Virus genome (UHGV): UHGV-1430452
From: a virus
DNA length: 64,000 nt
Reading direction: 5' to 3' (one strand)
Position numbers and translations under genes: made by a program. This document shows, in pieces, positions 305-56,734 of this stretch. Below the pieces are notes generated by a model that had not been told where the DNA came from, searched no databases, and saw nothing but the letters and a program-made list of their open reading frames with translations. Positions within the stretch are counted from its first letter, which is position 1; every line of letters starts with the position of its first letter.

Positions 305-3300
305 TTACTTCACTCCTTTCAAATACTTAGATACTGTCGATGTAGAAACTCCCATCTTCTTAGCAATCTGTTCAAGTGTATAGTTAGATGCAGCCATTGC
401 TTTAGCTCTACTAACTTGTGCACTGCTTAGACTGTTGGTTAGTCTAGGAGTTGCTCGTTCTCTAAGGTTATCGATGTCTGTTGTGTTAAGGATTCTCTTA
501 AGCTGATTCTCACTAACAGCACCAGCTTGTATAGCTTCCCATTCTTTGTCACTGATCTCTATGTTACGATCTCTTCTAGAGATAGAGCCAACCTCTTGTC
601 TATACTTATTCAACGCCTGTTGGCTAAGCTTTCTCAACGGTTCTCCTTTAAGCTCTTCACCATGTTCTTCAAGGTAAGCCTTCTTCTTAGCTGCTATCTC
701 GGAATTAGCTTTTCGTTGAGCAGTTCTTTCTTTAATCTTATTGAGATCTGACTTATCGACTCTCTCCATTAAAGACTTAACCTCATCTCTATACGCAGCC
801 TTAGCACTTGCTGTTGTTTCGATCTTTCCTGTGTTAGCCATAGCTAATCTAGCTTTGTTACCAAGAGCTTTCATCTCATTAGCGTAGTCCGCATAGATAA
901 GTTCCATAGGATGTCTAGCTTTAGATACTAATTTATAAGCATCATCAGTCTCAGCCATCTTAGTACTTTGCTGCATACGGGTTTTAGTACGATATGTAAT
1001 ATCACCAGCGGCATTAGTATAGGTTACTTTCCCAGTGACGGGGTCTTTTTTCTCAATAGGGTTATACCTTTCGTAAGCTGCCTTATCTTTGGGATCATAT
1101 TCAATCTTCTTGCCATCAGCTGTTCGCACGGTAATAAGACCGGTCTTCTTATCTCGTTTTCTATCGACATAATATAGATCGTCGGCCTTCTTCCAAAGCT
1201 TGGCTCCATCTGGTTTGGTGGGGTCATAATCTTTACTACCTGGGATGTTTATTTTATATGAGCCTTGTCTTTTCTCAACTGAATATTGTCCCTTTGATCT
1301 TGATAAAATGGTAGAAGCTCCACCTGATCTTTCATTTCCGTCATCGTCAATACGAACCTGATACTTCTTTTTAAGTGCAGCAATATTGTTATCTATCTCA
1401 CTTTGTTTGTAATCAAGATGATGTTTCTCAGCATCAATAACAACCATGCTATGCTTAACTGCTCTTGCCAATTCTTTTTCATCAGCTCCAGCTAAAGTCA
1501 TATCAGTAATAAGATTGGATACAACACCCATCTGAGTTCCAGTGTTTTTCATGATGGGATATGCTTTTCCATTACGATAATAACGAACATTACCATCTGC
1601 ATCCTTCTTAGCAACACCACCATATTCAACCTTAGGATCAAATCCTTCAAGATCTTCAAGAGGTCGCTTATTAAGAATTTTTACCTTTCCACCTGGATCA
1701 TTGGTAGGAATACACATAACAGTATCGCCATCAAAGTCTGCACCTGAAAGCTGATCAGCAATCTTATGATTAATGCCGACTGCATCGATACTTTGTTTGC
1801 CAATTATTTTATCTCCCAGTGGATTCTTATTGTTAACTGTTAAGATAGGAATTTCAAATCGTCCGCCATGAGGATAACGAATAAGAGCGAGCTTAGTTCC
1901 ACTCTCGTAGTTTGGAGCATATACTTCATTGTCTTTTAAAGAGTTTATTGGAATAATAACGTGGTACTTCTGTCCAGGTAACGCTGCTGCTTTTAAATGT
2001 ACAGCCGCTGCATCGCAGCTATCTGCAAATTTCTCAAGCATATGTTTCTTAATAGTAGGATTAGTAATAGACATATACTCATCAAACTCAGCAAACTTAT
2101 CTTTCTTAGCAAGATCTAACTGTTTCTTAGCTAGAGTCTGTGACTGTTTAGCCAGGAACTGAGATGGTAATGCGTCCTGCCAATCATCCCAATCTCCTTC
2201 ATCGGATCTCTTATTAATGAGACCTAATTTCTTCTTACCGGTCTTAGGATCGTCATACCAATACTGTCCACCCTTGTCAGCATCTTTTATAAGAGAGCCA
2301 AATGGATTGTCTGGATCATCTTTCTTAATATTTTTAAGAACCGTACTTGTTTTATCGCCTAAAGCTGGAGTACCTTTTTTCTTATTCGTATTAAATATGA
2401 CATCTACTCCATCAGGCATGTTGTCAGAATATACTGCCATACCTTTAAGATAATGAGTTCCATCTACAAGAATACGAACCTGTGAATATCGTGAATCACC
2501 GAGATCAAGATCTTTACATCCTCTGCGAAGTTCAATGATACCGTCCTTATCAATACCCTTAAATCCATCAGCACCGACATCGTCTGCATATCGAACCATT
2601 AAACGTTTTGAATCAAGACTTGCAGGATATGTAAACTTCTTCTGGAATGTATCTCCTCCGTCTATTGATTCATAATCGTTAATTGTCTTTACTCTATCGT
2701 AGTCGTAGATTTCTTTATGTGCCGTTCCTGGTTTACAAAGAACTTTCTGGATGGTCTGTTGTCCTTTTGTATTTATCTGAGGAATACCACCAGTATACAC
2801 AGGATAACCTTCTGCTTTCTGTAAGTAATCAAGAGCAGTATTCAATCGTTCTTTGGATATGCCAAGAGATTTTTCAACACCAGCTGTTACATCGATCATA
2901 CCTTTTTGATCAACATGCTCTCGCAGAAAATCTACAGTCTCCATTGCCTGATGCATACGGTCTTCAGACTTAGGATTAAGAAGAGACCTTACTGTGGACT
3001 CTGGAATACCCATTTCTCTACCGATGGCAGTTGCTCCAAGTCCATCTTCTTTTAAAGATTTAGCTCTAGCTACCTGTTGTAATCTTTCTTCATAACCAGC
3101 CCAACTAATCTGCCTTCTATATTCTGTAGTTGTTAAGTCCATGGATTTAGCTATCGCATTATCTCCGGTCCAGGTCTTACCATTATCATCAGTGTAAGTA
3201 AAACCGGCTTTCTTAAGCTCTTTAACTCTTGCGAGGAAATCGGAACCATGTTGGTATCTATCTTTTCCACTTCCATAAGGATACCTACCGCTGCGGCGAG

Positions 3301-3475
3301 GCATACCATAATGCATAAGTTCATCTTCATTCGCGCTGTCTAAGCGATCAGACCAACCAAAATAAGAAAGGATCTCGTCAGCAACGGTGAACTCTTCATC
3401 GCTGTGCTCAAGATCCTCTTCTCCAAATATAGATTCTACAAGTTCGTTCAACGGAGGTTTCTCTAAGAACTCCAT
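305..3475 (-). CDS. large RNA polymerase-like protein (1056 aa): beta-prime-type double-psi beta-barrel motif ADFDGD preceded by IRYPHGGRFEIP; C-terminal HTH
   Basis: ADFDGD hexamer identical to multisubunit RNAP beta-prime NADFDGD; upstream R-x-P-H...F-E-P resembles the beta-prime NRxPTLHR...FEP block; HTH TLEQIAKKMGVSTSTVSKYLKG at C-terminus; start overlaps upstream stop with in-frame GAGGAGG. Confidence 0.85.
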   Translation of the reverse strand: MEFLEKPPLNELVESIFGEEDLEHSDEEFTVADEILSYFGWSDRLDSANEDELMHYGMPRRSGRYPYGSGKDRYQHGSDFLARVKELKKAGFTYTDDNGKTWTGDNAIAKSMDLTTTEYRRQISWAGYEERLQQVARAKSLKEDGLGATAIGREMGIPESTVRSLLNPKSEDRMHQAMETVDFLREHVDQKGMIDVTAGVEKSLGISKERLNTALDYLQKAEGYPVYTGGIPQINTKGQQTIQKVLCKPGTAHKEIYDYDRVKTINDYESIDGGDTFQKKFTYPASLDSKRLMVRYADDVGADGFKGIDKDGIIELRRGCKDLDLGDSRYSQVRILVDGTHYLKGMAVYSDNMPDGVDVIFNTNKKKGTPALGDKTSTVLKNIKKDDPDNPFGSLIKDADKGGQYWYDDPKTGKKKLGLINKRSDEGDWDDWQDALPSQFLAKQSQTLAKKQLDLAKKDKFAEFDEYMSITNPTIKKHMLEKFADSCDAAAVHLKAAALPGQKYHVIIPINSLKDNEVYAPNYESGTKLALIRYPHGGRFEIPILTVNNKNPLGDKIIGKQSIDAVGINHKIADQLSGADFDGDTVMCIPTNDPGGKVKILNKRPLEDLEGFDPKVEYGGVAKKDADGNVRYYRNGKAYPIMKNTGTQMGVVSNLITDMTLAGADEKELARAVKHSMVVIDAEKHHLDYKQSEIDNNIAALKKKYQVRIDDDGNERSGGASTILSRSKGQYSVEKRQGSYKINIPGSKDYDPTKPDGAKLWKKADDLYYVDRKRDKKTGLITVRTADGKKIEYDPKDKAAYERYNPIEKKDPVTGKVTYTNAAGDITYRTKTRMQQSTKMAETDDAYKLVSKARHPMELIYADYANEMKALGNKARLAMANTGKIETTASAKAAYRDEVKSLMERVDKSDLNKIKERTAQRKANSEIAAKKKAYLEEHGEELKGEPLRKLSQQALNKYRQEVGSISRRDRNIEISDKEWEAIQAGAVSENQLKRILNTTDIDNLRERATPRLTNSLSSAQVSRAKAMAASNYTLEQIAKKMGVSTSTVSKYLKGVK

Positions 3476-3478
3476 TCA

Positions 3479-4105
3479 TCACACCTCCTCGTTCATTCGC
3501 TCCAATGTTTTGCTATGCTGAATAATCGCATCCATTACAGGAAGGATTTCTTCTGCTGTAGGATTGTGGAATATAACTTCGTCGTTCTGGTAGATTCGCA
3601 ATTCAGTTTCAATCTCTCCAGGTTTGACTTTATACTCCAAACAAAAAAGAGCCGCATACACAAGTAGCTGCTCCATCTTCGCCGGAATTATACCGGACTT
3701 ATAATCATGTATTCTTAAGAAATTATTTCGGAATGAAATGGCATCTGCTGTACCGAAACAGTAATCAGAGTAATATAAGATCTGTTCCGGTGTTAACTTA
3801 AACCCAATTGCGTCATTAACGTAGGTCATAAAGTTACTGTAAATACGATCCATGTCTATAACATTTCTTGGGATACCGTCATTAAGTAGATGGGACAGTA
3901 CAGTTAACTTATCACCTTTCTTGAGTTTTAAGTTGTTGGATATTAATGTTTCAGCCAACTCGTGAAGCGATGTTCCCATGCTCTGCGCATAACCGCTAGC
4001 ATATTTCTGATAAAGCTGCTCTTCGGTATATCGCAACCAGTGAGGTTGGCTAGGAGCCAGGAAAGCATGTTTACCTCGCAGATTCAAATGCTTTTCGAAA
4101 ATCAT
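3479..4105 (-). CDS. PD-(D/E)XK nuclease, RecB/YqaJ/Cas4-like exonuclease fold
   Basis: HDYKSG...QLLVYAAL matches the D-x-K...Q-x-x-x-Y core of RecB-family nucleases; no C-terminal Cys cluster. Confidence 0.7.
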   Translation of the reverse strand: MIFEKHLNLRGKHAFLAPSQPHWLRYTEEQLYQKYASGYAQSMGTSLHELAETLISNNLKLKKGDKLTVLSHLLNDGIPRNVIDMDRIYSNFMTYVNDAIGFKLTPEQILYYSDYCFGTADAISFRNNFLRIHDYKSGIIPAKMEQLLVYAALFCLEYKVKPGEIETELRIYQNDEVIFHNPTAEEILPVMDAIIQHSKTLERMNEEV

Positions 4106-13133: not shown

Positions 13134-13625
13134 TTAATCGCACCACAACACAATCTGTCCAAGTTCTCTAGTTCTCTTTACATCTATAACTCTTTGATTT
13201 GAGCTTCCTCTCCATTTCAACTGTACATCTCTGAGTTTCTCGACATACGGTCCGTCTACCAAAACATCAATGTACTCCATAACCGGTAGATCTTTAACCG
13301 CTTCATATGTATATCCGGTGTAAAGCCAGATCGTTTTGTTTGGGAAAGATGCTTTTACTATTTCGCATAGTGTCAAAATATCCCATCGGTTTCCTTCAAA
13401 CAACGGATCTCCACCCGATAAAGTCAAACCGGAAATATAATCTTCATCGAGTAGATCTTCGAGTTCCTCCCAAGCATTTCCATCAAACAACAATCCATCA
13501 TCAGGGTTCCAAGTAACAGGATTCTGACATCCAGGGCATTCATGATCGCAGCCGGCAACCCATAGGACTACACGAAGACCGTCTCCGTTTTTCATATCGT
13601 CTTTCGTAATATCATGGTATCTCAT
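13134..13625 (-). CDS. nrdG: radical-SAM activating enzyme, NrdG-like (anaerobic ribonucleotide reductase activase family)
   Basis: GDGLRVVLWVAGCDHECPGCQNPVTW with CxxxCxxC cluster and downstream LSGGDPLF. Confidence 0.75.
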   Translation of the reverse strand: MRYHDITKDDMKNGDGLRVVLWVAGCDHECPGCQNPVTWNPDDGLLFDGNAWEELEDLLDEDYISGLTLSGGDPLFEGNRWDILTLCEIVKASFPNKTIWLYTGYTYEAVKDLPVMEYIDVLVDGPYVEKLRDVQLKWRGSSNQRVIDVKRTRELGQIVLWCD

Positions 13626-14511: not shown

Positions 14512-14674
14512 TATTTGATCCTTTCAATGCGTAGGGAGTACGATCAAACCATTTTCTAGCTTTCGAATAGTTTTCCTTTTCTCGCCCTAAACTTTCACAT
14601 CTAGAATATTCAGCGTGTTTATTGAAACCTATCACTTTCTTAGAATGGCTTTTGTCCACATCCACATATCTCAT
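14489..14674 (-). CDS. hypothetical protein (61 aa)
   Basis: co-directional ORF. Confidence 0.55.
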   Translation of the reverse strand: MRYVDVDKSHSKKVIGFNKHAEYSRCESLGREKENYSKARKWFDRTPYALKGSNNVRKTKY

Positions 14675-14829
14675 TTCTTTTTCTCCTTGTAATATACAGG
14701 TTTATGAGAGTTAAGATTTGTCGGTTCATCGAGACAATCAAAACACGGATCTTCCCATTCTTCTTTATCCTCATGTCGGCACGATTTACAATACTCAAAA
14801 TAAACCTCTTTTTCATCATTTGGCCGCAT
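14671..14829 (-). CDS. small Cys-rich protein (52 aa), zinc-ribbon-like
   Basis: missed by track; CxxC...CxxC; SD GGAGGAAA; ATGA overlap with next gene. Confidence 0.5.
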   Translation of the reverse strand: MRPNDEKEVYFEYCKSCRHEDKEEWEDPCFDCLDEPTNLNSHKPVYYKEKKK

Positions 14830-14861: not shown

Positions 14862-15023
14862 CTAATTGGACTCCTTTTGAGTTACTTCATTCTTTTCGGT
14901 GCTATTCTTTTCTTCGTTTTTGTTACGTTTCCCGCTCGCCATATTCAACGCAAATATAACAGTGGAAACAATACCTGCAATGTAGCTCAGTACGATAATC
15001 GCTAAAATCTCTGTGAATGCCAT
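14862..15023 (-). CDS. small membrane protein (53 aa)
   Basis: missed by track; SD AGGAGG; hydrophobic N-terminus. Confidence 0.5.
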   Translation of the reverse strand: MAFTEILAIIVLSYIAGIVSTVIFALNMASGKRNKNEEKNSTEKNEVTQKESN

Positions 15024-15026
15024 AAT

Positions 15027-15707
15027 TTAATCCTCCTTTTTAGATCCGGTGATAAGTTCTGAATATGGAAGAGTTTCGATCCATCTACAGAATTCTCTCC
15101 ACTCATCGAGCTTGTGGTTTTTTCTCTGGTGATACATGGCTGCCAGGACTTCATAATTGAGCATAACAGTACGTTTCTGGTTATAGCTGCTCGGAAGAAG
15201 CTGAATCATCTGCCACCAACAGCCTTTGTCTTTAGATTTTAAATAAGATTCACGGCACCAGTTTAACTGCTCTATTGTGGTATTAAGAACGGATAATGAT
15301 GCTTTGCATAAATGTTCACAACTAAAATCCTCCAGCGTAAATTCCTTCGCATGAATCTTGTGCATAGTTGAGCAAGAGTTAGCAACAGTACCGATTTTAT
15401 AAGTATCGAACTCCTTCCACCAATACAAAGGCGCTGTAATATCCACATACACAGTAATCATCCGCATAAATTTACGATGCTCTGTACCAGCGTTCCGAAG
15501 TCTTTTCATAAGGTCGAGGTCGTTTGGCCCGATTATAAAACGGCATGTATTACCGCACCAATCCGGTTTGAAACCACACGATTTACAAAGACCAGTATCG
15601 CATCCGTTACTACTATCACTCTTCTCCCAACTATTCATCGGATTCCGCATACCTCTAATGGCAGCTTCCCATCCCATAACTTCTACATTCTCAATTTTAA
15701 TACTCAT
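15027..15707 (-). CDS. Cys-rich protein (226 aa); tentative ThyX-like fold lacking the canonical RHR motif
   Basis: N-terminal VEVMGWEAAIRGMRNPMNS and ITVYVDITAPLYWW loosely resemble ThyX blocks; recalled alignment only. Confidence 0.6.
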   Translation of the reverse strand: MSIKIENVEVMGWEAAIRGMRNPMNSWEKSDSSNGCDTGLCKSCGFKPDWCGNTCRFIIGPNDLDLMKRLRNAGTEHRKFMRMITVYVDITAPLYWWKEFDTYKIGTVANSCSTMHKIHAKEFTLEDFSCEHLCKASLSVLNTTIEQLNWCRESYLKSKDKGCWWQMIQLLPSSYNQKRTVMLNYEVLAAMYHQRKNHKLDEWREFCRWIETLPYSELITGSKKED

Positions 15708-15719
15708 AATTTAATCCTC

Positions 15720-16463
15720 CTATTCAAGCCAATTGTTATCTAAATAATAAAATCCAATTACACAAGCGATAATTAACACAATCCATACTACCCAAAAGAA
15801 TATAAGCCACCCGTTTCCGTATTTTAATGTCTCGTACGTTTCATCAATGCTCATATTGTTATAGAAATTAGTGTTATCAGGTATGGTTCCGTCTTTTAAC
15901 CTGGCAAATATAGTTCCTTTGAATTTGGTTGGTGTACCATAATACTTATATCGAACGTCACTAGATTCCTTAAGGGTATCGATATAATCCGGTGATGGAA
16001 TATTGATTTTACTAGACGGAAAAGTAACACCACAAAATATCAATTCTTTGCAGGTCTTATCCTCGCTTCCAACCCTATCCCATGTCCAGTAGTACTCTGT
16101 TCTTGTATGTGTGGTTCTATTTTTGCCAGAACCGGTAGTATAAGTGACAATTCGAGTATGCATTGTATATCGCTCTTTCACTTTTTCGACATACATATAT
16201 TTTCCGTCTATTTCCGGATAAGTAACCGTGTCAACAGCTTTTAGATTTCCATTCACAAAAGCGTTTCCGACATTGGTCCTCATACCATACTCGAATATAT
16301 CGGACTCTTTGATTTTTACTGCTTTGTTGTAGATCTCATTCTTATCCATTTGGTGCTCCGAAATCTTACTAGAAATCAGAACACCAATAAGTAATAGAAT
16401 GGCTATAATAGAAATACTGGCTAACACTTCCCTTTTAGTTATTTCAATATCATAGTCTCCCAT
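15720..16463 (-). CDS. membrane protein (247 aa), TM helices at both ends; partner of LemA
   Basis: hydrophobic ends; immediately downstream of LemA gene. Confidence 0.65.
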   Translation of the reverse strand: MGDYDIEITKREVLASISIIAILLLIGVLISSKISEHQMDKNEIYNKAVKIKESDIFEYGMRTNVGNAFVNGNLKAVDTVTYPEIDGKYMYVEKVKERYTMHTRIVTYTTGSGKNRTTHTRTEYYWTWDRVGSEDKTCKELIFCGVTFPSSKINIPSPDYIDTLKESSDVRYKYYGTPTKFKGTIFARLKDGTIPDNTNFYNNMSIDETYETLKYGNGWLIFFWVVWIVLIIACVIGFYYLDNNWLE

Positions 16464-16468
16464 ATTAT

Positions 16469-17023
16469 TTACTCCTTGAATAAATCCTGCGGTGCGTCAA
16501 CTGGAGCATCATAATCCAAATATGTATAATCTTGTGTCTCGTATCCTAATAAACTTAAAAATGTTCTTGTCGGGAATTTACGTACATAGCGATTGTATTC
16601 TTTTATCTGCTTATTATAGTTACTACGATATTCCGCGATAAGATTCTCTGTAATAGATAATTCATTCATTAGTTCTTTATAGTTTGAATCTGACTTCAAC
16701 TCAGGATATGCTTCAGATACTGCGGTAATAGCTGTCGTCACATTCTCAATGTCTCCTGTTTTACCTCGGCCTTCCACAATTGACTTAAGAGTCTCTGCTT
16801 CGTGTTTATCGTACTGCTTCACACAATCTGCCAGATTCATAACGAGATCTACTCTTCGTTTTTCCTGAACCTTGATATCAGAATCAGCACTGTTTACTTG
16901 TTCTTCTAGAGCAATTGCTTTGTTCTGAGAACTCTGGACTACAAATACACCTAATAAAATAACTGCCAGAATACCAGCAGCTACGATTAACATTACCTTC
17001 CAATTTTTATTATTTCCTTTCAT
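16469..17023 (-). CDS. lemA: LemA family protein
   Basis: N-terminal TM then RRVDLVMNL...EAYPELKSDSNYKELMNELSITENLIAEYRSNYN matches LemA; likely start at internal ATG (17023), not the TTG used by the track. Confidence 0.75.
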   Translation of the reverse strand: MKGNNKNWKVMLIVAAGILAVILLGVFVVQSSQNKAIALEEQVNSADSDIKVQEKRRVDLVMNLADCVKQYDKHEAETLKSIVEGRGKTGDIENVTTAITAVSEAYPELKSDSNYKELMNELSITENLIAEYRSNYNKQIKEYNRYVRKFPTRTFLSLLGYETQDYTYLDYDAPVDAPQDLFKE

Positions 17024-17199
17024 TTTTTGATCTCCTTTTCTAAATATTTTTTGATTTCTTCGCAACGTTCTGCATGTTTACAAGTAATGTCTGTATTAGT
17101 GCAATATCTACCCATATCGCATTCCAATTCAGCTTTACTAACATACGGATCGAAGTCAGGACAATTATGACAATAATCCTCCACGAATAATTTGATCAT
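17020..17199 (-). CDS. small Cys-rich protein (59 aa)
   Basis: missed by track; multiple Cys pairs; TGA/ATG overlap with lemA. Confidence 0.45.
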   Translation of the reverse strand: MIKLFVEDYCHNCPDFDPYVSKAELECDMGRYCTNTDITCKHAERCEEIKKYLEKEIKK

Positions 17200-17573: not shown

Positions 17574-17843
17574 TCACTGTTGACTATCCCCTTTCATCGC
17601 CGAACATATACGGCAATCATTGTTAGCTGCTCCGAAACAACCCTCACATTTATCGGTGTTTGTGCAGTCGAGTAATCCTAAGAAAATATAAAGTTTCTTC
17701 ATACAATCATTGCATAGATCAAGTTCGTCTATTACACTGCGGTTTTCTCTCAATATAGCCACCTTTGATGGAACTTCTCCATTTTTTATACTCACATTCT
17801 TGTCGTAATAGTTTCCGCATCTATCACATTTCTTAGCTTTCAT
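17574..17843 (-). CDS. zinc-ribbon protein (89 aa)
   Basis: CDRCGN...CNDC...CEGC...CRIC. Confidence 0.6.
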   Translation of the reverse strand: MKAKKCDRCGNYYDKNVSIKNGEVPSKVAILRENRSVIDELDLCNDCMKKLYIFLGLLDCTNTDKCEGCFGAANNDCRICSAMKGDSQQ

Positions 17844-18229: not shown

Positions 18230-18577
18230 TAACGCGAGCCGTGGAGAATGTTTCTTACGCGTACCATCTACTAACAGATTCATACACATCTACAAGTTCC
18301 TCGTAACCTAGTAGTCTAAGAAAATCACAAAGAATATCATCGGCATTCTCATGATCTTCTTCCGGATTCCCGGTAAAACAGTTGCATTTAATTCGCTCAA
18401 TTACTTCTGCTTCGTCAATCACAGTAAGTCCTCCTTTCTATTCATCCAATTCAAAATCGTCACATGCAGACTGATCAGGTGATACGTCAGTATAAGATCT
18501 ACGGCAATAATGTTCGCCAGTAGCCATATTGTATCGACAGTGCTTGCAATCTAAGCATTCATAGTATTTTTCATCAT

Positions 18578-19231
18578 TCATAACTCAACCTCAATAATTC
18601 TTTCTGGTTCAATGTCACTATCATCATCGATAAACACAGGCATAATCATACAAATACCAATACTTGTCTGAATAGTAATTGGTCTGCGTTTACCGTCAGG
18701 ATGATAAACCATAGCTTCTTTACCGTCATCGATAATTCCATAAGTCGCTTCCAACAATCCAATTTTGTAATAAGTACCGTCATAAAGCATTAGGTACTCA
18801 AACCCAGCTCCAACTTCTTTCTTAGTAAGTTTATAACCTCGACTCCTAGCCTCTGCAAATATCTTACTGAAATCTACTTTCCGTTTAATCCCCTCGAAAC
18901 TAATCAATCTAGTAACGTCAGGGTATTTCAAATTCTCCTTATCAAACAATTCGATTTCACCAATATCTTCGGTAGTTAATACCAAAGACCAAGAGTTAGT
19001 GAAAGAAATATAAGGTTTTCCTTCAAACTCAATTTCACAAGGCTTCTGGCAGCATTCTCTGGCATTGTTAGTATATGAGAAATACTTTTTCATAGCTGTG
19101 TAACGTTTCTTAGCATTCGGTTTAGACTTTAATGAATCTGCATAAATCTCGTCTTGTAATTTAGTCTTTAATTCATCAATCTTACCTTCATTAAGCATTT
19201 CCAATACTTTTACGCTTCTCATGGAAGTCAC
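18578..19231 (-). CDS. hypothetical protein (217 aa)
   Basis: co-directional ORF. Confidence 0.7.
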   Translation of the reverse strand: MTSMRSVKVLEMLNEGKIDELKTKLQDEIYADSLKSKPNAKKRYTAMKKYFSYTNNARECCQKPCEIEFEGKPYISFTNSWSLVLTTEDIGEIELFDKENLKYPDVTRLISFEGIKRKVDFSKIFAEARSRGYKLTKKEVGAGFEYLMLYDGTYYKIGLLEATYGIIDDGKEAMVYHPDGKRRPITIQTSIGICMIMPVFIDDDSDIEPERIIEVEL

Positions 19232-37310: not shown

Positions 37311-37601
37311 CTATCGTAAAGATTTTGGGACAAGGCTTTTGATAATCTTTTTCTGATGCTCGTCCAGATCGTGATATAGAGTGAAACCCGTTGCCCCATT
37401 ATACTCATCGCCAAACTGTTTGTAGTACATAGATTGTTTCCATAACTCCGGATACTCTTTTTTGTACTTTGCGAGTTCTTTTGCTTTCTTGTCATACTGT
37501 TTATCCGAAATTATATTATTATCTAACTCGTAATAAATATATGAATGAAGTATGATATATCTTTGCAAGTAATCTATGTATTCGAGGGTTGTTAGTTCCA
37601 T
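37311..37601 (-). CDS. hypothetical protein (96 aa)
   Basis: start overlaps replicase stop; preferred over overlapping ORF 37136..37495. Confidence 0.6.
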   Translation of the reverse strand: MELTTLEYIDYLQRYIILHSYIYYELDNNIISDKQYDKKAKELAKYKKEYPELWKQSMYYKQFGDEYNGATGFTLYHDLDEHQKKIIKSLVPKSLR

Positions 37602-40600
37602 GGCAGCTCTACATCTTCATCATCGAATGGAATTTCCTCAGGAGATCCTTCCGGTATGTTCATGAAGTCTGGTAAATGAGAATCTCTAAAAGGAGGTTCA
37701 TGCCGATCTGAAGCATCCCAAGGCGGAGTACCAACATATGGATCGTCTGATATGAACCACTCAGCGTCTCCGTATTGACCAATAGTTTCAAGAGCATCAT
37801 CCACAAGCTTTCGATAATATGAACGATCAATATTTTCTTCATTTCCCGGAGACATCATTAACTCGGATTCAAGCCAACGGAAACCAGTTGTTCCTGTAGC
37901 TGCATAATATTTACCGTTCTGTTCTCGCATCAATAGTCCTCCACCCTTTCCAGGCTTAACCGGACAAAATTGCCCAACTTTACCTACGAAATGATAGTCA
38001 TGACCTTCAGCTATTAAATCGTTTAATCTTCGACACTCACTTTCGAAAGTTGTGTCCGATAACTTACCTTTCCTGTACTTATCTTCAAGTTTGGATAGTT
38101 CTTTTTCATACTCGGATACATCTGGAAGTTTTTCGTTCATATCCAAATATAAAGCAGATTTTACTGAGAATGCTTCGCACATATCTTTCAACTCAATTGG
38201 TTCTTTACTGAACAGTGTTTTAAATACATACGGAACTGCAAACTGTTTTCCAGTAGCTGTCCATTCTCCGGCATTCTTTCCATCTTTAAACCTAGCCACG
38301 TACACAGCATCATTTACTAAACAGAATTTTTCAAAGTTAGCCTCTGTTTCAAATGTATATCCGTATTCTTTACCGAATTTGGTTACGAAATCAATAATAT
38401 CAGGAGTAGCATCGGGTATCTTTATGGAATCTGTCTTGATATGACAAACAGTAAATCCTCGTTTCTGAACTTCTCTTTTCAATAATGTCATGAAGAGAGC
38501 TCCTCTTTTGGCAACAATGTTATCCTTATTTCTAGGATCTCTAAATTCATTTACGAAGCCAGCTGATGTCAAACCATAAATGGAATTGATAACAATCTTA
38601 AGTGCCTGCGCTAAATCAGCAGCCTGTTCTTCATTTAAGTATGGTTTCAACGCTCCACCTAATAATTGTCCAGCTGTTTCAAAGTCTTTATGCTTAATTG
38701 CAACACGAGCTTTTACAATATCCTCAAACCGTTTTGTATATTCTGGTCCAAATAGACATTCGAATATAATACTGTGAGGATGCTGAGAAGCAATGTCTCC
38801 ATCCCATACATTACCGTAATGCCCAGGTTCAGAGTAAACCCGACCGCCTTCTCCAATGGCTTCGCCTAAATATGTTGATTTACCAAACTCAAAAGTATAG
38901 CCTTTAAAGAATGGAAGAATGCTATAACCTTCTGGAAGCTTTTCGCCAGGAACGTAAGATCGATATAATGGAAGACCCTCAGAATCAAATACTCTGAAAT
39001 CATAATCATCTCCGAATTTAATTCTATATTCATCATAACGATCTGAGCTAACCGGTTCCGCCAAGTATCTATAGTTGAATACATTCTGCGGTTTTTTATT
39101 ATTTCCAAATATAATTCTTTTAGAAAGAGTATTTGTCGTATCATTAACTGTAACGTTTGTAATATCATGTAAGAGTTTTACAAGATCAACCTGAATCTGT
39201 CTAGCAACAAAGTCTGCTTTTCTTGCATTGAATACAGCTTCCGTCGCAATGACATCATTATCGCAATACTCAGCAACCTTTGCCCATAATTCTTCTGGAA
39301 CTGGTTGATCCCAAGGAAGACCAAGCTCTTGATGATGAATACCCAGTTCAATCTCCCATTTCTTTAAACTCTGTTTCACAGTTGACATATCATATACATC
39401 AATGTAACCAAGATTATATGCCTCACCAAACATGCCATTATCACGGCTTCCCTTTGGAGCATTAATAATTCTTTGAGATAACTTATATATTTCCTCATTT
39501 GTGTATCCCATAAGTCTAGCATAAATGATATGTCTGTCGTATTTACGTCCATTAAAATCAACAAGTTTAAACTTTAGAAGATTTTCTATTTCTGCTGGTG
39601 TAGGATTAATTAATCTAACTACTGTTTTTCCTTCTCCAGCAAACTTATAGTTTACCAAAAATAAATTTGGGAATACCTCACAATCATAGAATACAAGATC
39701 GTCAGTATCACCCTCATTACTTGTCTCTGAAGCCTCTTCACTCTTAAACGCCATCTGATTAACTAACTTCAAACACTCATCAGCCTGGTTACTACTACTC
39801 GCCGCCAAAGCAAATACAGCATTTTTCATATCAGACACATCATATCCAATACCACTCTCATAAGCCTCATCCAAAAGTTTCTTAATCATTTGAATACTTG
39901 GAGCTGTGTTACCCATAATTTCTTTATTCAGATGTTTCTTAAGAACGGATCTCAAATATTTCTCATTCTTAATACCATCAAAGTTAATCACATTTTTCAC
40001 CTCTTTCAACGGAAGACCTGAGCTAATTGTACGAATAACAAGATTGACACACTTAGTAAGTTTTCTTCTAAGAGATGTTTTACCGGTAAATACCTTAATC
40101 TCGATATCCTCATCAAATATACGACTTAATTCACTCACATCACCGTTATAAATATAATGAAGATGAATACCTCCACCACTTTTGCTTAACTCAGCATATG
40201 TTGGAGGCCATTTACTAGCTGCTTCAAGATTCTTCTCGAAACATTTATTACCATTCTCGTCCTTAATATCAAAGTCAATAACTACATGATTTTCAGGGAC
40301 CTTGACGTAATGAAGTTTTGATGTGTCAAGTTCTGATAGGGTAGTTGAAACTTCATCCCATGGCTTCGTCGGAGTTTCTTTTGAAGTAGCATATTGAGCT
40401 GGACAATCAGAACATTCTTTATCAAAAATAGACTCCTGTTCTTCAAATATAAGCCAGCTCTCAGTTTTCTCATCTCCAATAGGTTTCTCTGCTTTAACCT
40501 TTTTCTTCCCACCAATAGAGTCTTCGAAAATATCAGTCTTAAAACCGTCGTAATAACTCAGCAGCTTACTTCCATCTTCTTTCTCCACCTTCTCATCAAA

Positions 40601-41818
40601 TTCCAAAAAATAGTTTCTCAACTCGTCTTTGAATTTTGTCTTAGAAAATGGATACGGCACTTTTGCTTCCTCACAGTAGTTTTTATACATCTCCCATGCT
40701 GCTTTTAGCGTAGTACCATCTTCTTTCTTGAAGACACTGAATGAATCACATACGAAGTTATAAAAGTCATTAGAAGCCATAAGCATGTCCTTCGGAGCGT
40801 AAGTATCGTAATACTCTGGATCTTCTTTAAAGACTTGTAAACAATGATATGCGATTGCTCCCAACTCAAAATCAACCTGTTTGGTCAATCTACGATATTC
40901 TCGAATCGGTATCTTGTTTCCAGTAGGACGAACGTCAATCAAACGCCTTAGTAAACCAGACTTAGCATCAGTGATCTTAACAGGTGTGTTTGTACCCATA
41001 AATAAAAAACATTTGAATCTTGTTTCATATTGTCCTTTAAATTTTTCATTCATGGTCATTATCTCGTGTGAAATCACCGAGTTTAAGCGCGTATTATCTT
41101 CGATTTTTGATAAATCACCATCATGTTGTATCGCTACAAGAGGGTTATTCTTAAACGGTTCCAGAGCGAAAACATTATTCGGATTACCCAAAGCTTTTGC
41201 GTCAAAAGAACAACAATATCCTTCAAATAATTTCTCGATAATATTTATGATAGTTGATTTACCAGTACCACCAGCTCCGTAAAGCACCAGGAACTTTTGA
41301 AGTATTTTTGATTCCCCAGATACAACGGAGCCGATAGCCCATTCTATTTTACGTCGTTCTTCTTCGGAATATAGAGTACCGATGAGTTTATCCCATGCAG
41401 AAATATCGCCAGGTTCGAGAGGATACGGGAGTCTCTTGCTTGCGAAATTCTCTCTGCTTAATTCTGTGTTTGAAAATATAAGTTCATCATCGAGTACAGC
41501 AAAGTTATCACGCATCTGTTTCTGACAATATTTATGGAACTTATCGATTGAGCCACTGTCAGCATCCCACATATACTTAATTACAGGAGTACCTTCAAGA
41601 CGTCCTTCATTTTCAGCGACATATCTATCAAGTTCTCTATCTACAAGACGGGTTACATCGTCTTCATCTGTACTCCACATCTTTCGATCTTCATCCCAGA
41701 TAGCGTAAAAGTCCCTACCTCGAATCATGAGATCTTTAGATTTCAACATTTTGAACTTAGGAGAAACATCAACACTGCTTTTATTCGTCTTCGTTGATAC
41801 TGTCATGAAGTCCAACAT
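37592..41818 (-). CDS. multidomain replicase (1408 aa): SF3 helicase-type NTPase + primase-polymerase (AEP) domain + family B DNA polymerase with 3'-5' exonuclease
   Basis: Walker A VLYGAGGTGKST and motif C FMGTNTP; AEP motifs VVIDFDIKD and GGGIHLHY; exonuclease FYDCEVF and YCDNDVIATEAVF; PolB motif A DIASQHPHS, motif B KIVINSIYG, motif C HIKTDS. Confidence 0.9.
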   Translation of the reverse strand: MLDFMTVSTKTNKSSVDVSPKFKMLKSKDLMIRGRDFYAIWDEDRKMWSTDEDDVTRLVDRELDRYVAENEGRLEGTPVIKYMWDADSGSIDKFHKYCQKQMRDNFAVLDDELIFSNTELSRENFASKRLPYPLEPGDISAWDKLIGTLYSEEERRKIEWAIGSVVSGESKILQKFLVLYGAGGTGKSTIINIIEKLFEGYCCSFDAKALGNPNNVFALEPFKNNPLVAIQHDGDLSKIEDNTRLNSVISHEIMTMNEKFKGQYETRFKCFLFMGTNTPVKITDAKSGLLRRLIDVRPTGNKIPIREYRRLTKQVDFELGAIAYHCLQVFKEDPEYYDTYAPKDMLMASNDFYNFVCDSFSVFKKEDGTTLKAAWEMYKNYCEEAKVPYPFSKTKFKDELRNYFLEFDEKVEKEDGSKLLSYYDGFKTDIFEDSIGGKKKVKAEKPIGDEKTESWLIFEEQESIFDKECSDCPAQYATSKETPTKPWDEVSTTLSELDTSKLHYVKVPENHVVIDFDIKDENGNKCFEKNLEAASKWPPTYAELSKSGGGIHLHYIYNGDVSELSRIFDEDIEIKVFTGKTSLRRKLTKCVNLVIRTISSGLPLKEVKNVINFDGIKNEKYLRSVLKKHLNKEIMGNTAPSIQMIKKLLDEAYESGIGYDVSDMKNAVFALAASSSNQADECLKLVNQMAFKSEEASETSNEGDTDDLVFYDCEVFPNLFLVNYKFAGEGKTVVRLINPTPAEIENLLKFKLVDFNGRKYDRHIIYARLMGYTNEEIYKLSQRIINAPKGSRDNGMFGEAYNLGYIDVYDMSTVKQSLKKWEIELGIHHQELGLPWDQPVPEELWAKVAEYCDNDVIATEAVFNARKADFVARQIQVDLVKLLHDITNVTVNDTTNTLSKRIIFGNNKKPQNVFNYRYLAEPVSSDRYDEYRIKFGDDYDFRVFDSEGLPLYRSYVPGEKLPEGYSILPFFKGYTFEFGKSTYLGEAIGEGGRVYSEPGHYGNVWDGDIASQHPHSIIFECLFGPEYTKRFEDIVKARVAIKHKDFETAGQLLGGALKPYLNEEQAADLAQALKIVINSIYGLTSAGFVNEFRDPRNKDNIVAKRGALFMTLLKREVQKRGFTVCHIKTDSIKIPDATPDIIDFVTKFGKEYGYTFETEANFEKFCLVNDAVYVARFKDGKNAGEWTATGKQFAVPYVFKTLFSKEPIELKDMCEAFSVKSALYLDMNEKLPDVSEYEKELSKLEDKYRKGKLSDTTFESECRRLNDLIAEGHDYHFVGKVGQFCPVKPGKGGGLLMREQNGKYYAATGTTGFRWLESELMMSPGNEENIDRSYYRKLVDDALETIGQYGDAEWFISDDPYVGTPPWDASDRHEPPFRDSHLPDFMNIPEGSPEEIPFDDEDVELPWN

Positions 41819-44028: not shown

Positions 44029-44967
44029 TCAAATCATGTTGAGAATATCCCCATCCACATTGAAATCAAGAAGAATAGTTCTCTCATAACCGTTCACGAA
44101 GTTACGATTTGCCTCGTTGTAAGTGTTATAGATTCCGAAATCTACGAAATTATCACCTACTGGATGTTTCTCGTCATAAATCCATCCAACAATCTGACCT
44201 GCCTGTGTACGCGGGATTCCGAGCATATCATATACTTCATTCAGGAACAGATGACCTTTCGTTTTCAACATGTCATTTGCATAACGCTGCTGATCTTTAA
44301 GGAACATTAGATTGAATTCAGGATCTTTAGTCCATCCTGTACATCCATCATCGAAGAATTTAGCATAATCGCTGTAACTGTCGAGAGTTGCTACATTTGC
44401 TGTTTTCTTAACAGTAGTTTCTGTACCATCTTCATTTACAACAGTCTCTTCGATTTCTTTTGCTTTGATGTTGTACTTCAGTTCTTTATCAAGCTCTTCA
44501 CCAAATCTCTCAATAACACGACCACGATATTCCTTGAAGCCTTTGTCAATAGTTGCATAAGCGGCTGCAAGTGCTAAGTTACGTTTACGAAGAATATGAT
44601 GACCACTAAGAATAGCAGCGATAGAAACTGTTCCAAGGATTACTGCTGGAGCATAAAGTTTTGCTACCTTTACGGCTGTTTGAGTATACATGATAGTTAA
44701 ATCTTTCTTACCATCTTCTTCTGTGTACTCTTTACCTTCTGGAACCATATCTGGATTTTCCATAAATTCATGAATTTTCTCGATTTTTTCTTTTGGCTCA
44801 GCGAGCACCTCATCGAGTTTAGTAGTTGCTTTACATGCCATTACAGCAGAGCCAACTACACCAACAATACCTGCGCCAACCAAGATTTCAGGGCTATGCT
44901 TTTTAAATTTAAAACCTACACGATGGAGGCTTCTAGTTACTGTGTTCATAATTTCTAATTTTGCCAT
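44029..44967 (-). CDS. two-TM-anchored modular protein (312 aa), paralog family A (N-terminal domain shared with 47042 and 49330; C-terminal domain shared with 21525)
   Basis: N-terminal ...PEILVGAGIVGVVGSAVMACKAT... and C-terminal FFDDGCTGWTKDPEFNLMFLKDQQRY blocks. Confidence 0.75.
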   Translation of the reverse strand: MAKLEIMNTVTRSLHRVGFKFKKHSPEILVGAGIVGVVGSAVMACKATTKLDEVLAEPKEKIEKIHEFMENPDMVPEGKEYTEEDGKKDLTIMYTQTAVKVAKLYAPAVILGTVSIAAILSGHHILRKRNLALAAAYATIDKGFKEYRGRVIERFGEELDKELKYNIKAKEIEETVVNEDGTETTVKKTANVATLDSYSDYAKFFDDGCTGWTKDPEFNLMFLKDQQRYANDMLKTKGHLFLNEVYDMLGIPRTQAGQIVGWIYDEKHPVGDNFVDFGIYNTYNEANRNFVNGYERTILLDFNVDGDILNMI

Positions 44968-47041: not shown

Positions 47042-47869
47042 TTAATAGTAGCTATCGAAACCATATTCCGGAGGCATCAGATGATCAATAACAATACACG
47101 GTTCATTATCTTCCGTAATTTGAGCACTATATCTCACATCGATTTTGCCTTTATCGATTCTCCAACCGATGCTATTACCAACTTCGGTATGCTTAAGACC
47201 AATTTCGTCATAGAAATCATTCAGAGAAATATACATCTCGTTACCGTTGATCATTCTCTCATTAAGAGTAAGAACAGCATTTTTAATCTTGTCGATATCC
47301 GATCTGAAATATCTGTCGGAATGACTGTCATAACACAACGTGTTACCTTTACCTGTCATGATAATCTGAGTGTCTGCAACCGGATGTTCTTCAACTTGCT
47401 TCTTAGCGACTTTATCTCTGATGTTATTTTCCTTCTTCTCTCCGATAGTCTCTACCACTTTCTCTCTGTAGTCAGACAGTGCTGTTGTAGATAACTGATA
47501 TGCTGTTGCCAATGCTGCGTTACGTCTTACATGTACGGAATTAGCACCGATAAGACAAGCGACTGACGCAATGCCAGTGATAGCTGCTGGAATATAAGGT
47601 TTCCAAGCTGCTTTTACTGTTTCGACAGGTGTGAGATTTAAAGCGTTTCTTTCGTCTTCTTCTGTGAAAATACCGCCTTCATGAGCTTCTTTCTCTTTAA
47701 ACTTCTTCTCTTCCTCGATTAACTCCATAGCTTTTGGTGTTGCTTTTACTGCAAGCACAACAGTAGATATCATACCTGCGATACCAATGCCAGTAAGAAT
47801 TTCCGGACTGCGTTTTTTCATTACATATTTTGCAGTGTTTAAAAATTTTGTTACATTTGGTTTGTTCAT
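47042..47869 (-). CDS. two-TM-anchored modular protein, paralog family A (275 aa)
   Basis: N-terminal domain aligns with 44029 and 49330. Confidence 0.75.
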   Translation of the reverse strand: MNKPNVTKFLNTAKYVMKKRSPEILTGIGIAGMISTVVLAVKATPKAMELIEEEKKFKEKEAHEGGIFTEEDERNALNLTPVETVKAAWKPYIPAAITGIASVACLIGANSVHVRRNAALATAYQLSTTALSDYREKVVETIGEKKENNIRDKVAKKQVEEHPVADTQIIMTGKGNTLCYDSHSDRYFRSDIDKIKNAVLTLNERMINGNEMYISLNDFYDEIGLKHTEVGNSIGWRIDKGKIDVRYSAQITEDNEPCIVIDHLMPPEYGFDSYY

Positions 47870-49140: not shown

Positions 49141-49349
49141 GTGTAATGGATATGCTCATTGTTTAATTCGTCGAGATGTTTAATAAAATCTAAATATCTT
49201 TTATTTCGTCTATTCTCCACAAAGTTTATAACTAACCAAGCAATCCCTACGATAGGCAAGCCAACGAATACTAATAGAAATAGTAAGCATGTAATCATAG
49301 AAACAAGCGTATTCATAAATCTTCTCCTTTCAATACTCTTCGTAATCAA
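49134..49349 (-). CDS. small membrane protein (71 aa)
   Basis: two hydrophobic segments; track start may overextend into the motif. Confidence 0.55.
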   Translation of the reverse strand: MITKSIERRRFMNTLVSMITCLLFLLVFVGLPIVGIAWLVINFVENRRNKRYLDFIKHLDELNNEHIHYTR

Positions 49350-50106
49350 TGAACGGCTCTGTGAAATCTACAATATAACATTCAATACCGTCGTCCATTT
49401 CTACTTTTGTATGGTGGAAATATAGCCAACCATCCCAGTACATTTCATACATCTGAGCTGCGGACCAACCCATAAATTCACCGTAATCCTGTCGATCAAT
49501 CTCTAGTAAATCGTAATAATCGTTTAAAGATGCACCACCGGATTGAGATAGCATTTTATTAATCTCATACTCTGCTCTCAATTGAGTTTCTTTCGTCACA
49601 CGGTAATAACGTTTGGAATATTCATCGTAGAATAGTGTTTTGCCATCCTCGTATTCGTCGTCATATTCTTCTTTGTCTTCTTCCTCGTAATGGTCTTTTG
49701 CTACAGCAGCACGAATGAGTTTGTCTCCGTCTTCACCATATAACTTTTTAACTTTGTTTTTGTACTCTTTGTGAGTTTGGTCTAGTAAGGCATAAGCAGA
49801 TGCGATGGCTGCTTGGGAATGTTTGTTTAATAGATTCGCGCCAAATATGCAAGCTAGGGTTCCTGTTCCAATCAATAAGGAAGGAATATATGTTGGTCCT
49901 GCTACTCGAATAGTCTCCCATTTTGTTAATTCATCTCCTTTCTCTTCTTCAGCTAGTTCAATAAGTTCCATTGCTTTCGGAGTAGCTTTAACCGCCATTA
50001 CAGCTGTACCTACCACTCCGGCAGCTCCTAATACTGTTAATATAGTAGAGCTGTTTTTCTTTACGAATCTTTTCGAAACTGTTAGTAAGTCATTCATTTC
50101 CAGCAC
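49330..50106 (-). CDS. two-TM-anchored modular protein, paralog family A (258 aa)
   Basis: N-terminal domain aligns with 44029 and 47042. Confidence 0.75.
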   Translation of the reverse strand: MLEMNDLLTVSKRFVKKNSSTILTVLGAAGVVGTAVMAVKATPKAMELIELAEEEKGDELTKWETIRVAGPTYIPSLLIGTGTLACIFGANLLNKHSQAAIASAYALLDQTHKEYKNKVKKLYGEDGDKLIRAAVAKDHYEEEDKEEYDDEYEDGKTLFYDEYSKRYYRVTKETQLRAEYEINKMLSQSGGASLNDYYDLLEIDRQDYGEFMGWSAAQMYEMYWDGWLYFHHTKVEMDDGIECYIVDFTEPFIDYEEY

Positions 50107-56052: not shown

Positions 56053-56649
56053 ATGACAATAGGACAAAAAATAAAAGAATTACGCAATCAACTTAATATG
56101 TCGGTGGATGATCTTGCTGTGAAACTGGGTAAGAACCGTGCGACTATCTACCGCTATGAACGAGGAGATATCGAGAACCTCCCTCTCGATGTACTAGAAC
56201 CATTAGCAAATGCTCTTGAGACCACACCTGGTTATTTAATGGGATGGGAAGAAACTACGAAAAAGAAAGAGCCTTCAATTATCGATGAAGTTACCATGGG
56301 TGACGTTTTTAAAGCGTTACGTCTAGGAAGTAATTTATCGATAGAGGAATTTTCGCATGAGATTGGATTATCTGCCCAAGACATAAGCAATTATGAAGCA
56401 GGAAAGACTCCTATACCTGTAAATATAATTAATCTTGTTGCTGATTTCTTTGGCATATCAATAGCGGAAATAGTTAAGGCACACAAAAACAGCGAAAATA
56501 GAACGCCTTCTGGTTTCGAAATGAAAAAGGAACGATTTGAACGTTTTAAAGTTTGGAATAAAGAGTTTGGACGAATACATTTTACTGATGAAGAAATCAA
56601 TAAAATAATGGAATATACAAGGTTCTTACTTAGCCAAAGAAGACAGTAA
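56053..56649 (+). CDS. XRE-family transcriptional regulator with two HTH domains (198 aa), CI-like
   Basis: HTHs LNMSVDDLAVKLGKNRATIYRYERG and LSIEEFSHEIGLSAQDISNYEAG; SD AAAGGAG. Confidence 0.8.
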   Translation: MTIGQKIKELRNQLNMSVDDLAVKLGKNRATIYRYERGDIENLPLDVLEPLANALETTPGYLMGWEETTKKKEPSIIDEVTMGDVFKALRLGSNLSIEEFSHEIGLSAQDISNYEAGKTPIPVNIINLVADFFGISIAEIVKAHKNSENRTPSGFEMKKERFERFKVWNKEFGRIHFTDEEINKIMEYTRFLLSQRRQ

Positions 56650-56734
56650 GTCTACATAGGTTTACTCTATTTAAAGGAGGTGATGCCTGAATTCAGTTCA
56701 TCGTAGAATTTACATCAAAGGAAAGGTGGAACCA

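Follow-up and report, generated by a model that had tools for sequence, protein, structure and literature searches.

A LemA gene and an adjacent membrane-protein gene form a co-inherited cassette in phages of Bacillota

In a stretch of 64,000 nucleotides (nt) from the virus genome UHGV-1430452 (the window), a LemA-family gene of 184 amino acids (aa) at 16469-17023 is followed by the gene of a second membrane protein of 247 aa at 15720-16463, here called the partner. The minus strand carries all genes of this region. LemA and partner are a co-inherited cassette across unrelated Bacillota phages, and chance adjacency is excluded. The partner belongs to an undescribed family of hairpin membrane proteins, in which a beta domain of about 155 residues with a predicted OB-like barrel core lies between two transmembrane helices. 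Both families were already catalogued as PHROGs without function, and LemA genes had been noted in phage genomes. New is that the gene following LemA in phages represents a distinct family which Pfam does not contain and whose OB-like ectodomain was modelled with confidence. Furthermore, the pair is nearly obligate as a cassette and is abundant in phages associated with the gut, and it shares the layout of cellular LemA modules but not their partners. With regard to function, the pair is tentatively read as a membrane complex which would maintain or remodel the membrane of the infected cell from its outer face. The sequence evidence gives no pointer to an unprecedented mechanism, and the claim is a modest one.

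To our knowledge, LemA is among the most widespread bacterial membrane proteins still without a known function, and no explanation exists for its regular occurrence beside a second membrane protein. The pair described here occurs in gut Lachnospiraceae phages, in Enterococcus phages of the type considered for therapy and in phage-plasmids of Clostridioides difficile. A phage gene pair is easily deleted or expressed alone and thus offers a practical route to the function of the LemA module. Such work could in addition tell how the host membrane is managed by phages of Gram-positive bacteria in the course of infection.

The co-inheritance of both genes was examined in viral and bacterial genomes. 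A search of IMG/VR with the partner yielded at least 550 stretches encoding a relative. Eighty of these loci were retrieved, many of them from contigs of 90-180 kb. LemA was located directly upstream of the partner in 79 of the 80 loci, mostly with gaps of 4-37 nt; the one exception is truncated by the edge of its contig. Bacterial genomes were searched with LemA, and 51 loci were obtained, mostly from Lachnospiraceae isolates and metagenome-assembled genomes (Blautia, Hungatella, Enterocloster, Roseburia and Cuneatibacter among the genera). A full partner followed LemA in 50 of them and a truncated remnant in the remaining one. In a Lachnospiraceae metagenome-assembled genome (L052, about 3455-3600) only the first ~50 partner residues (profile positions 4-53) are present after LemA, and the gene is truncated or frameshifted. 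Three of the bacterial loci were examined for their neighbours. These are phage genes, and the loci therefore look like related prophages. The initial annotation had described the pair as embedded in a phage gene array, which agrees with its phage-, prophage- or phage-plasmid-borne location in every context examined.

Among phages and phage-plasmids, the pair was detected in some 22 records of Enterococcus phages (145-153 kb), in Lysinibacillus phage LC76P1, Lactococcus phage PLg-TB25 and Latilactobacillus phage TMW 1.46 P1 (family-profile match of the partner with E 7.9e-47), and in C. difficile phage-plasmids of 46-48 kb (E 1.9e-91). Of 39 GenBank phage records encoding LemA, at least 27 contain the partner, 26 of them found by tblastn and the Latilactobacillus phage by the family profile. 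For five distant representatives of the partner family, LemA or its C-terminal fragment was found upstream in four. One distant homologue (P0216, locus L142, 4001-4708), which matches the family profile with E 9e-87, lacks a LemA gene in the 4 kb to each side. Its neighbours are dUTPase, DUF5131, YopX and ParB-methylase genes, and it is the only solo case found. The pairwise divergences of LemA and partner are correlated (Mantel r 0.87, reached in 0 of 999 permutations). Across the viral loci the mean identity to the window proteins is 81% for LemA and 68% for the partner, so LemA is the more conserved of the two. The relatives of the partner amount to 3018 at 90% clustering and to 940 clusters at 50% identity, 368 of these below E 1e-30, and nearly all are 230-270 aa long. 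A homologue search starting from the Enterococcus phage partner protein returned 3 proteins only.

A HAD-like gene (phrog_1238/phrog_24386, DFDGTL motif, mislabelled 'phosphoheptose isomerase') was observed near the pair in several loci (L001 1987-2364, L029 4429-5496, L011 4321-5019). It lies on the upstream side of the pair in Enterococcus phage EA1 and on its downstream side in Lachnospiraceae prophages, and it may be a third, looser member of this neighbourhood.

By its sequence, the gene at 16469-17023 is a genuine LemA, as the initial annotation had proposed, with one predicted N-terminal membrane anchor and a four-helix-bundle LemA domain. The open reading frame (ORF) is listed as 16469-17065 with a TTG start. 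An AGGAG lies 8 nt before the ATG at 17023, and the N-terminus obtained from this start, MKGNNKNWKV..., agrees with the N-termini of the homologues. Residues 48-169 match the Pfam family LemA (PF04011) with E 1.6e-30 and 106.3 bits, compared to a gathering cutoff of 26.2. The solved LemA structure of Thermotoga maritima (PDB 2ETD) is matched by residues 33-167 (E 1.7e-24), including the RR-DL--NL motif, and phrog_1383 with E 1.6e-49. The single N-terminal transmembrane anchor is given by the hydrophobic stretch MLIVAAGILAVILLGVFVV behind a K-rich N-terminus.

No functional study of a phage LemA was found in the literature. Publications on phage genomes mention LemA genes without studying them, and one paper confuses the family with the Pseudomonas sensor kinase LemA/GacS. 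In GenBank and PHROG the gene is named 'virion structural protein', 'putative repressor' or 'LemA'. If the first of these names, carried by phrog_1383 and several RefSeq records, were right, the protein would be a component of the virion. This is very improbable for an ordinary LemA with a transmembrane anchor, the gene of which lies far from the structural genes. Furthermore, the particles of tailed phages contain no membrane. The labels themselves are unreliable, because other annotators write 'putative repressor' for the same gene.

The partner is matched end to end by phrog_3886, a family of unknown function (E 3.8e-85; residues 5-247 aligned to positions 5-263 of the 263 in the profile). 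Pfam and NCBIfam gave no family match, and a sequence-profile search of the PDB with the partner family remained empty. The full-length partner was modelled with AlphaFold2 from an alignment of 30 sequences (pLDDT 79). The model contains a helix at residues 10-46, a beta domain at 49-202, a short helix and a further helix at 219-246. This fits the transmembrane helices at both ends that had been noticed from the sequence. For the domain alone (residues 45-215; 137 sequences) a pLDDT of 97.6 and a pTM of 0.85 were obtained. In this model an OB-like barrel core is elaborated by a pair of 20-residue strands, and no close solved relative was found. Conserved positions of the family are T-N-x-G-N-A-F-V-x-G, Y-x-x-E-x-Y-T-x-H-T-R, Y-W-T-W-D and R-Y-x-Y-Y-G, as well as F-W-x-x-W in the second transmembrane helix and the C-terminal tail N-x-W-L-E.

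A Foldseek search of the viral structure library BFVD gave as best match a protein of 269 aa (E 1e-20, TM-score 0.75), probably the homologue of Lactococcus phage PLg-TB25. The next matches were orphan proteins of giant viruses (Satyrvirus, Tupanvirus, Klosneuvirus, Hyperionvirus) with about 210-270 aa and E 1e-7 to 1e-10. With the full-length model these reach a Foldseek probability of 1.0 but TM-scores of only 0.3-0.45, and either the barrel or the helices may drive the match. A Pfam scan of 121 diverse relatives of the partner showed DUF4064 as the sole recurrent match, in 19 members and on the C-terminal membrane helix.

The membrane orientation of both proteins was estimated from the charge bias in 124 LemA and 122 partner sequences. 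The LemA N-terminus before the helix carries 2.5 K+R and 0.3 D+E, and the 15 residues after the helix carry 1.0 K+R and 2.0 D+E. By the positive-inside rule we infer from this bias that the LemA domain lies on the outer side of the host cytoplasmic membrane. An extracellular C-terminal domain of LemA has been predicted before (cited in the review PMC3905215). For the partner, 4.4 K+R and 3.8 D+E were counted at the N-terminus, 0.9 and 4.6 in the 15 residues before the second helix, and 0.7 and 2.3 in the C-terminal tail. The barrel would thus also face outward, with less certainty than LemA.

In the window, both genes belong to a putative transcription unit. Two terminator-like hairpins on the minus strand (consensus scan), at 17260-17243 upstream and at 14875-14855 downstream, bracket five genes: a 59-aa ORF, LemA, the partner, a phrog_6721 gene and a 53-aa ORF. 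Between the LemA stop and the partner start there are 5 nt, and the partner is preceded by an AGGAG of its own. The 59-aa ORF (17020-17199, 6 Cys, minus strand) is located upstream of LemA and its stop overlaps the LemA start codon (ATGA). It is only loosely associated: since it accompanies the pair in just 8 of the 80 viral loci, it is placed outside the core cassette, and it matched no family in the Pfam and PHROG searches. The phrog_6721 gene (15027-15707, minus strand, 226 aa, E 6.9e-86) begins 12 nt 3' of the partner and is probably co-transcribed with it. In 18 of the 80 viral loci and in several prophage loci it is located at most 4 kb from the pair. Its product gave no match in Pfam, NCBIfam and PDB searches; a Cys cluster, CDTGLCKSCGFKPDWCGNTC, was observed in it. 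The last gene of the unit, taken from the ORF list, is a 53-aa single-pass membrane ORF (14862-15023, minus strand).

The initial annotation had also mentioned small Cys-rich ORFs flanking the pair. Such ORFs of 47-89 aa with paired CxxC motifs are located at 14671-14829, 17020-17199, 17574-17843 and 18438-18581, all on the minus strand. They are scattered through the early-gene block and look zinc-ribbon-like; among those scanned, no convincing family match was obtained. A sigma-70 promoter scan showed no enrichment (13 sites, 16 expected), and no promoter for the pair was identified by it.

Small membrane proteins in a unit which ends with a single-pass ORF could also control the timing of lysis. 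The pair would then act with or against the holin, antiholin-like or by stabilising the membrane, and delay lysis. The N-terminal part of LemA weakly resembles the spanin family phrog_739 (E 0.0055), but this match spans only the transmembrane helix and a coiled-coil-like region, and the hosts, being single-membrane bacteria, need no spanins. Moreover, neither an endolysin nor a holin gene was found beside the pair in any locus inspected. A role in lysis timing is accordingly regarded as quite improbable.

The window is judged to be part of a large temperate phage of the SPbeta-like type. The pair sits in a block of replication and nucleotide-metabolism genes, and lysis genes, structural genes and the integrase are not adjacent to it. 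A gene for an NrdG-like radical-SAM activase of anaerobic ribonucleotide reductase (13134-13625, minus strand; Fer4_12 E 7.8e-44, phrog_626) is located 2 kb downstream, which fits an obligately anaerobic host. The window also carries helicases, an exonuclease and a tail-fibre protein. A 1056-aa protein (305-3475, minus strand; phrog_4291, E=0) is labelled 'RNA-dependent RNA polymerase' and has an extra C-terminal HTH/HNH-like region at residues ~990-1054. It is interpreted as a YonO-type single-subunit phage RNA polymerase, which points to an SPbeta-like phage that brings its own machinery for transcription. At 37592-41818 (minus strand) a 1408-aa primase-polymerase fusion matches phrog_4210 over its full length (E=0), with primase profiles on the N-terminal part (about residues 120-430) and DNA-polymerase profiles beyond. 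Three paralogues of phrog_2152, of unknown function, lie within ~6 kb at 44029-44967, 47042-47869 and 49330-50106 (all minus strand; E 1e-67 to 1e-93). In the only long plus-strand block (56053-58312) a large serine integrase (phrog_95, E 1.2e-91) is encoded together with an ORF of 198 aa, and the GC and AT skews switch sign there.

Comparable surroundings were seen in other carriers. In Enterococcus phage EA1 the pair lies between genes for NrdD, a deoxynucleoside kinase (annotated as deoxyadenosine/deoxyguanosine kinase), PnuC and a NadR-type enzyme. In the C. difficile element the genes for DnaB, SSB and a sigma factor precede it. Two small temperate phages carry it in a group of accessory genes shortly upstream of the terminase genes, in one of them with a RinA-type activator in between. 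The pair was not located in a lysogeny module in any locus examined.

These positions bear on superinfection exclusion, the main rival to a function in membrane maintenance. The initial annotation had named it as a possible role beside membrane stress. Here the pair would enter the host membrane early in infection or from a prophage, and its outward domains would block the DNA injection or the receptor use of other phages. T4 Imm and Sp and the lactococcal Sie2009 are exclusion proteins to which such a pair could be likened. Two membrane proteins with domains predicted to face outward, an origin from phages or prophages throughout, the accessory-gene position in the two small temperate phages and the faster evolution of the partner are all consistent with this idea. 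However, a place among replication and nucleotide-metabolism genes and a spread over virulent and temperate carriers fit poorly to a classical prophage exclusion gene. The pair stands outside the lysogeny modules and lacks an identified promoter of its own. It also occurs in the Enterococcus phages of about 150 kb, which are taken to be virulent. Furthermore, the conservation of LemA at about 81% is unusual for genes in an arms race. The defence and exclusion models of PADLOC-DB gave no convincing match for LemA (only PDC-S35 with E 5.7e-4 and gop with E 0.011) and nothing for the partner. Exclusion as the primary role is therefore considered somewhat unlikely.

A membrane complex on the outer face which maintains or remodels the membrane of the infected cell is the reading we favour, though tentatively. 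From the gene order, the synthesis of LemA and partner would coincide with the expression of the replication and nucleotide-metabolism genes, and both soluble domains would come to lie at the outside of the cytoplasmic membrane of the host, as the charge bias suggests. The two proteins would interact physically. By analogy, LemA could serve as a scaffold at the membrane surface that organises the barrel domain of the partner. The complex would then keep the membrane functional until lysis, and a block of later-arriving phages might be a side effect. Such a complex of scaffold and ectodomain is favoured because cellular LemA genes precede genes of outward-facing membrane proteins, among them TPM proteins and an M48 peptidase of the quality-control type, and because of the analogy with MamQ and LemA-like scaffolds. 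In line with it, the pair is found among auxiliary metabolic genes, including the PnuC transporters and the NadR-type enzyme in Enterococcus phages. It is also carried by virulent-type and temperate phages alike, and its LemA is highly conserved.

Several points weigh against this reading. Its functional step is wholly an argument by analogy. The timing of expression is deduced from gene order, the scan identified no promoter, and an RNA polymerase of its own seems to be encoded by the phage. The topology signal of the partner is moderate, with near balance at the N-terminus (4.4 K+R, 3.8 D+E) and an acidic C-terminal tail. The orientation of LemA may not be universal, and a mycobacterial LemA-like domain was modelled on the cytoplasmic face (preprint 10.64898/2026.07.15.738315). 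Finally, the solo homologue in L142 without LemA within 4 kb apparently means that the partner can act alone.

A protective role against host defence overlaps with the maintenance of the membrane. In that case the complex would shield the membrane from abortive-infection effectors of the host that depolarise or permeabilise it. The early-region position, the membrane location and the wide spread among Bacillota phages are compatible with it, and cellular LemA genes were induced together with envelope-stress genes in one transcriptome study (PMC13236525). No link to a known anti-defence family was found, however, and a distinct counter-defence function is judged improbable.

For the partner, remote relationships were examined in addition to the favoured reading of a membrane-maintaining complex. 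GenBank annotators name its phage homologues differently: in Enterococcus phages 'RING-type E3 ubiquitin transferase' was given by one annotator and 'transmembrane protein 43' by some, and 'putative transmembrane protein' is also used. The human MUL1 and TMEM43 query sequences were confirmed by Pfam (GIDE E 3.8e-24, TMEM43 E 5.9e-87); for TMEM43, a database cluster with 100% identity was found as well. In MUL1, the BAM/GIDE domain is built of beta structure, has a membrane helix on each side and is directed away from the cytosol; prokaryotic relatives without RING exist (PMC4457424). Sequence homology of the partner to GIDE/MUL1 was not supported, and a fold relationship is unsupported but not rejected. 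The Pfam family GIDE matched 0 of the 121 members, and hhalign against human MUL1 gave a probability of 0.08%.

For TMEM43 (PF07787), Pfam matches below threshold were detected in 2 of the 121 members (best E 2e-4; P0266 with 13.9 bits, cutoff 23.3). With hhalign the probability was <1% against the single sequence and 0.2% against a shallow profile of 18 amniote sequences. A local hmmsearch gave noise-level scores, about half of the best alignments pairing TMEM43 residues 89-165 with partner residues 66-148. By eye, the partner shows a G-x-L...D-P...Y-x-W...Y-x-W pattern in this register. The relationship to GIDE or TMEM43 is thus a lead and not a result.

It is conceivable, but unlikely, that the partner family is the phage branch of an ancient superfamily of beta-barrels slung between two helices, to which BAM/GIDE, TMEM43 and the giant-virus orphans would belong, with LemA as a dedicated membrane scaffold. 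If so, the pair would be a widespread and unrecognised phage device on the outer face of the host membrane. It would also be a tractable experimental model for the roles of the BAM and TMEM43 domains.

Like the ectodomain of the partner, the BAM/GIDE domain of MUL1/MAPL (PF12483) is a beta-rich domain between two transmembrane helices on the non-cytosolic side, an orientation that for the partner comes from the charge bias. In contrast, the partner has no RING domain, and searches of PDB structures gave no match to MUL1. TMEM43/LUMA shares the N-terminal transmembrane helix, the following beta-rich domain and the similar hairpin pattern, but it has three C-terminal transmembrane helices and a larger domain. 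With OB-fold proteins, including the periplasmic BOF protein YgiW, only ~70 of the 171 residues of the partner domain can be aligned, at 5-15% identity. These proteins have no counterpart to the long 20-residue hairpin and the flanking elements of the partner.

For the cellular LemA modules, twelve LemA loci on plasmids or chromids were sampled and the gene after LemA was inspected. YgcG/TPM was found there in six of them (Ralstonia, Cupriavidus, Thiodictyon, Legionella, Leptospira, Halomonas). A second TPM gene usually comes next; the TPM gene of Halomonas is located about 840 bp downstream. Other genes in this position encode DUF2207 (Sulfitobacter), DUF3137 (Thermus), an M48 metallopeptidase (Mycobacterium), a hypothetical protein of 524 aa (Streptomyces) and, in C. 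difficile, the phage partner family. The order differs on the 127-kb plasmid of Lactobacillus gasseri, the twelfth locus, where the TPM gene lies upstream of LemA. The initial annotation had seen in the window the usual arrangement of LemA and partner, possibly with a TPM- or DUF3137-like protein. Its layout is borne out by this sample, in which LemA is followed by a membrane-anchored protein; its suggestion for the partner family is not. No Pfam match to TPM (PF04536), DUF3137, DUF2207 or GIDE was reported for the window partner or its 121 diverse relatives. With hhalign, only transmembrane segments of the Thermus DUF3137 and Sulfitobacter DUF2207 proteins were aligned (probability <1%), and only membrane segments of the Streptomyces protein. 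At the sequence level the partner is thus unrelated to the known LemA partners, and the pairing is nonetheless strongly conserved.

The phage pair and the cellular operons have in common that LemA comes first, a membrane-anchored protein next, and that the intergenic gaps are short. They differ in the second protein. The cellular ones are YgcG/TPM, DUF2207, DUF3137 or an M48 peptidase, and the phage partner is none of these; the phage pair was seen only in phages, prophages and phage-plasmids among the contexts examined. MamQ is a LemA homologue needed for the formation of the magnetosome membrane and linked to membrane remodelling (PMC3905215; preprint 10.64898/2026.07.15.738315). A mycobacterial LemA-like four-helix bundle was likewise proposed as a membrane scaffold or remodeller (preprint 10.64898/2026.07.15.738315). 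MamQ, like the window LemA, has the LemA domain behind one N-terminal transmembrane helix, and the NCBIfam MamQ model is matched with E 1.7e-20. The 73 bits obtained are far under the cutoff of 250, so the window LemA is no equivalog of MamQ; the magnetosome context is absent and the partner is a different one.

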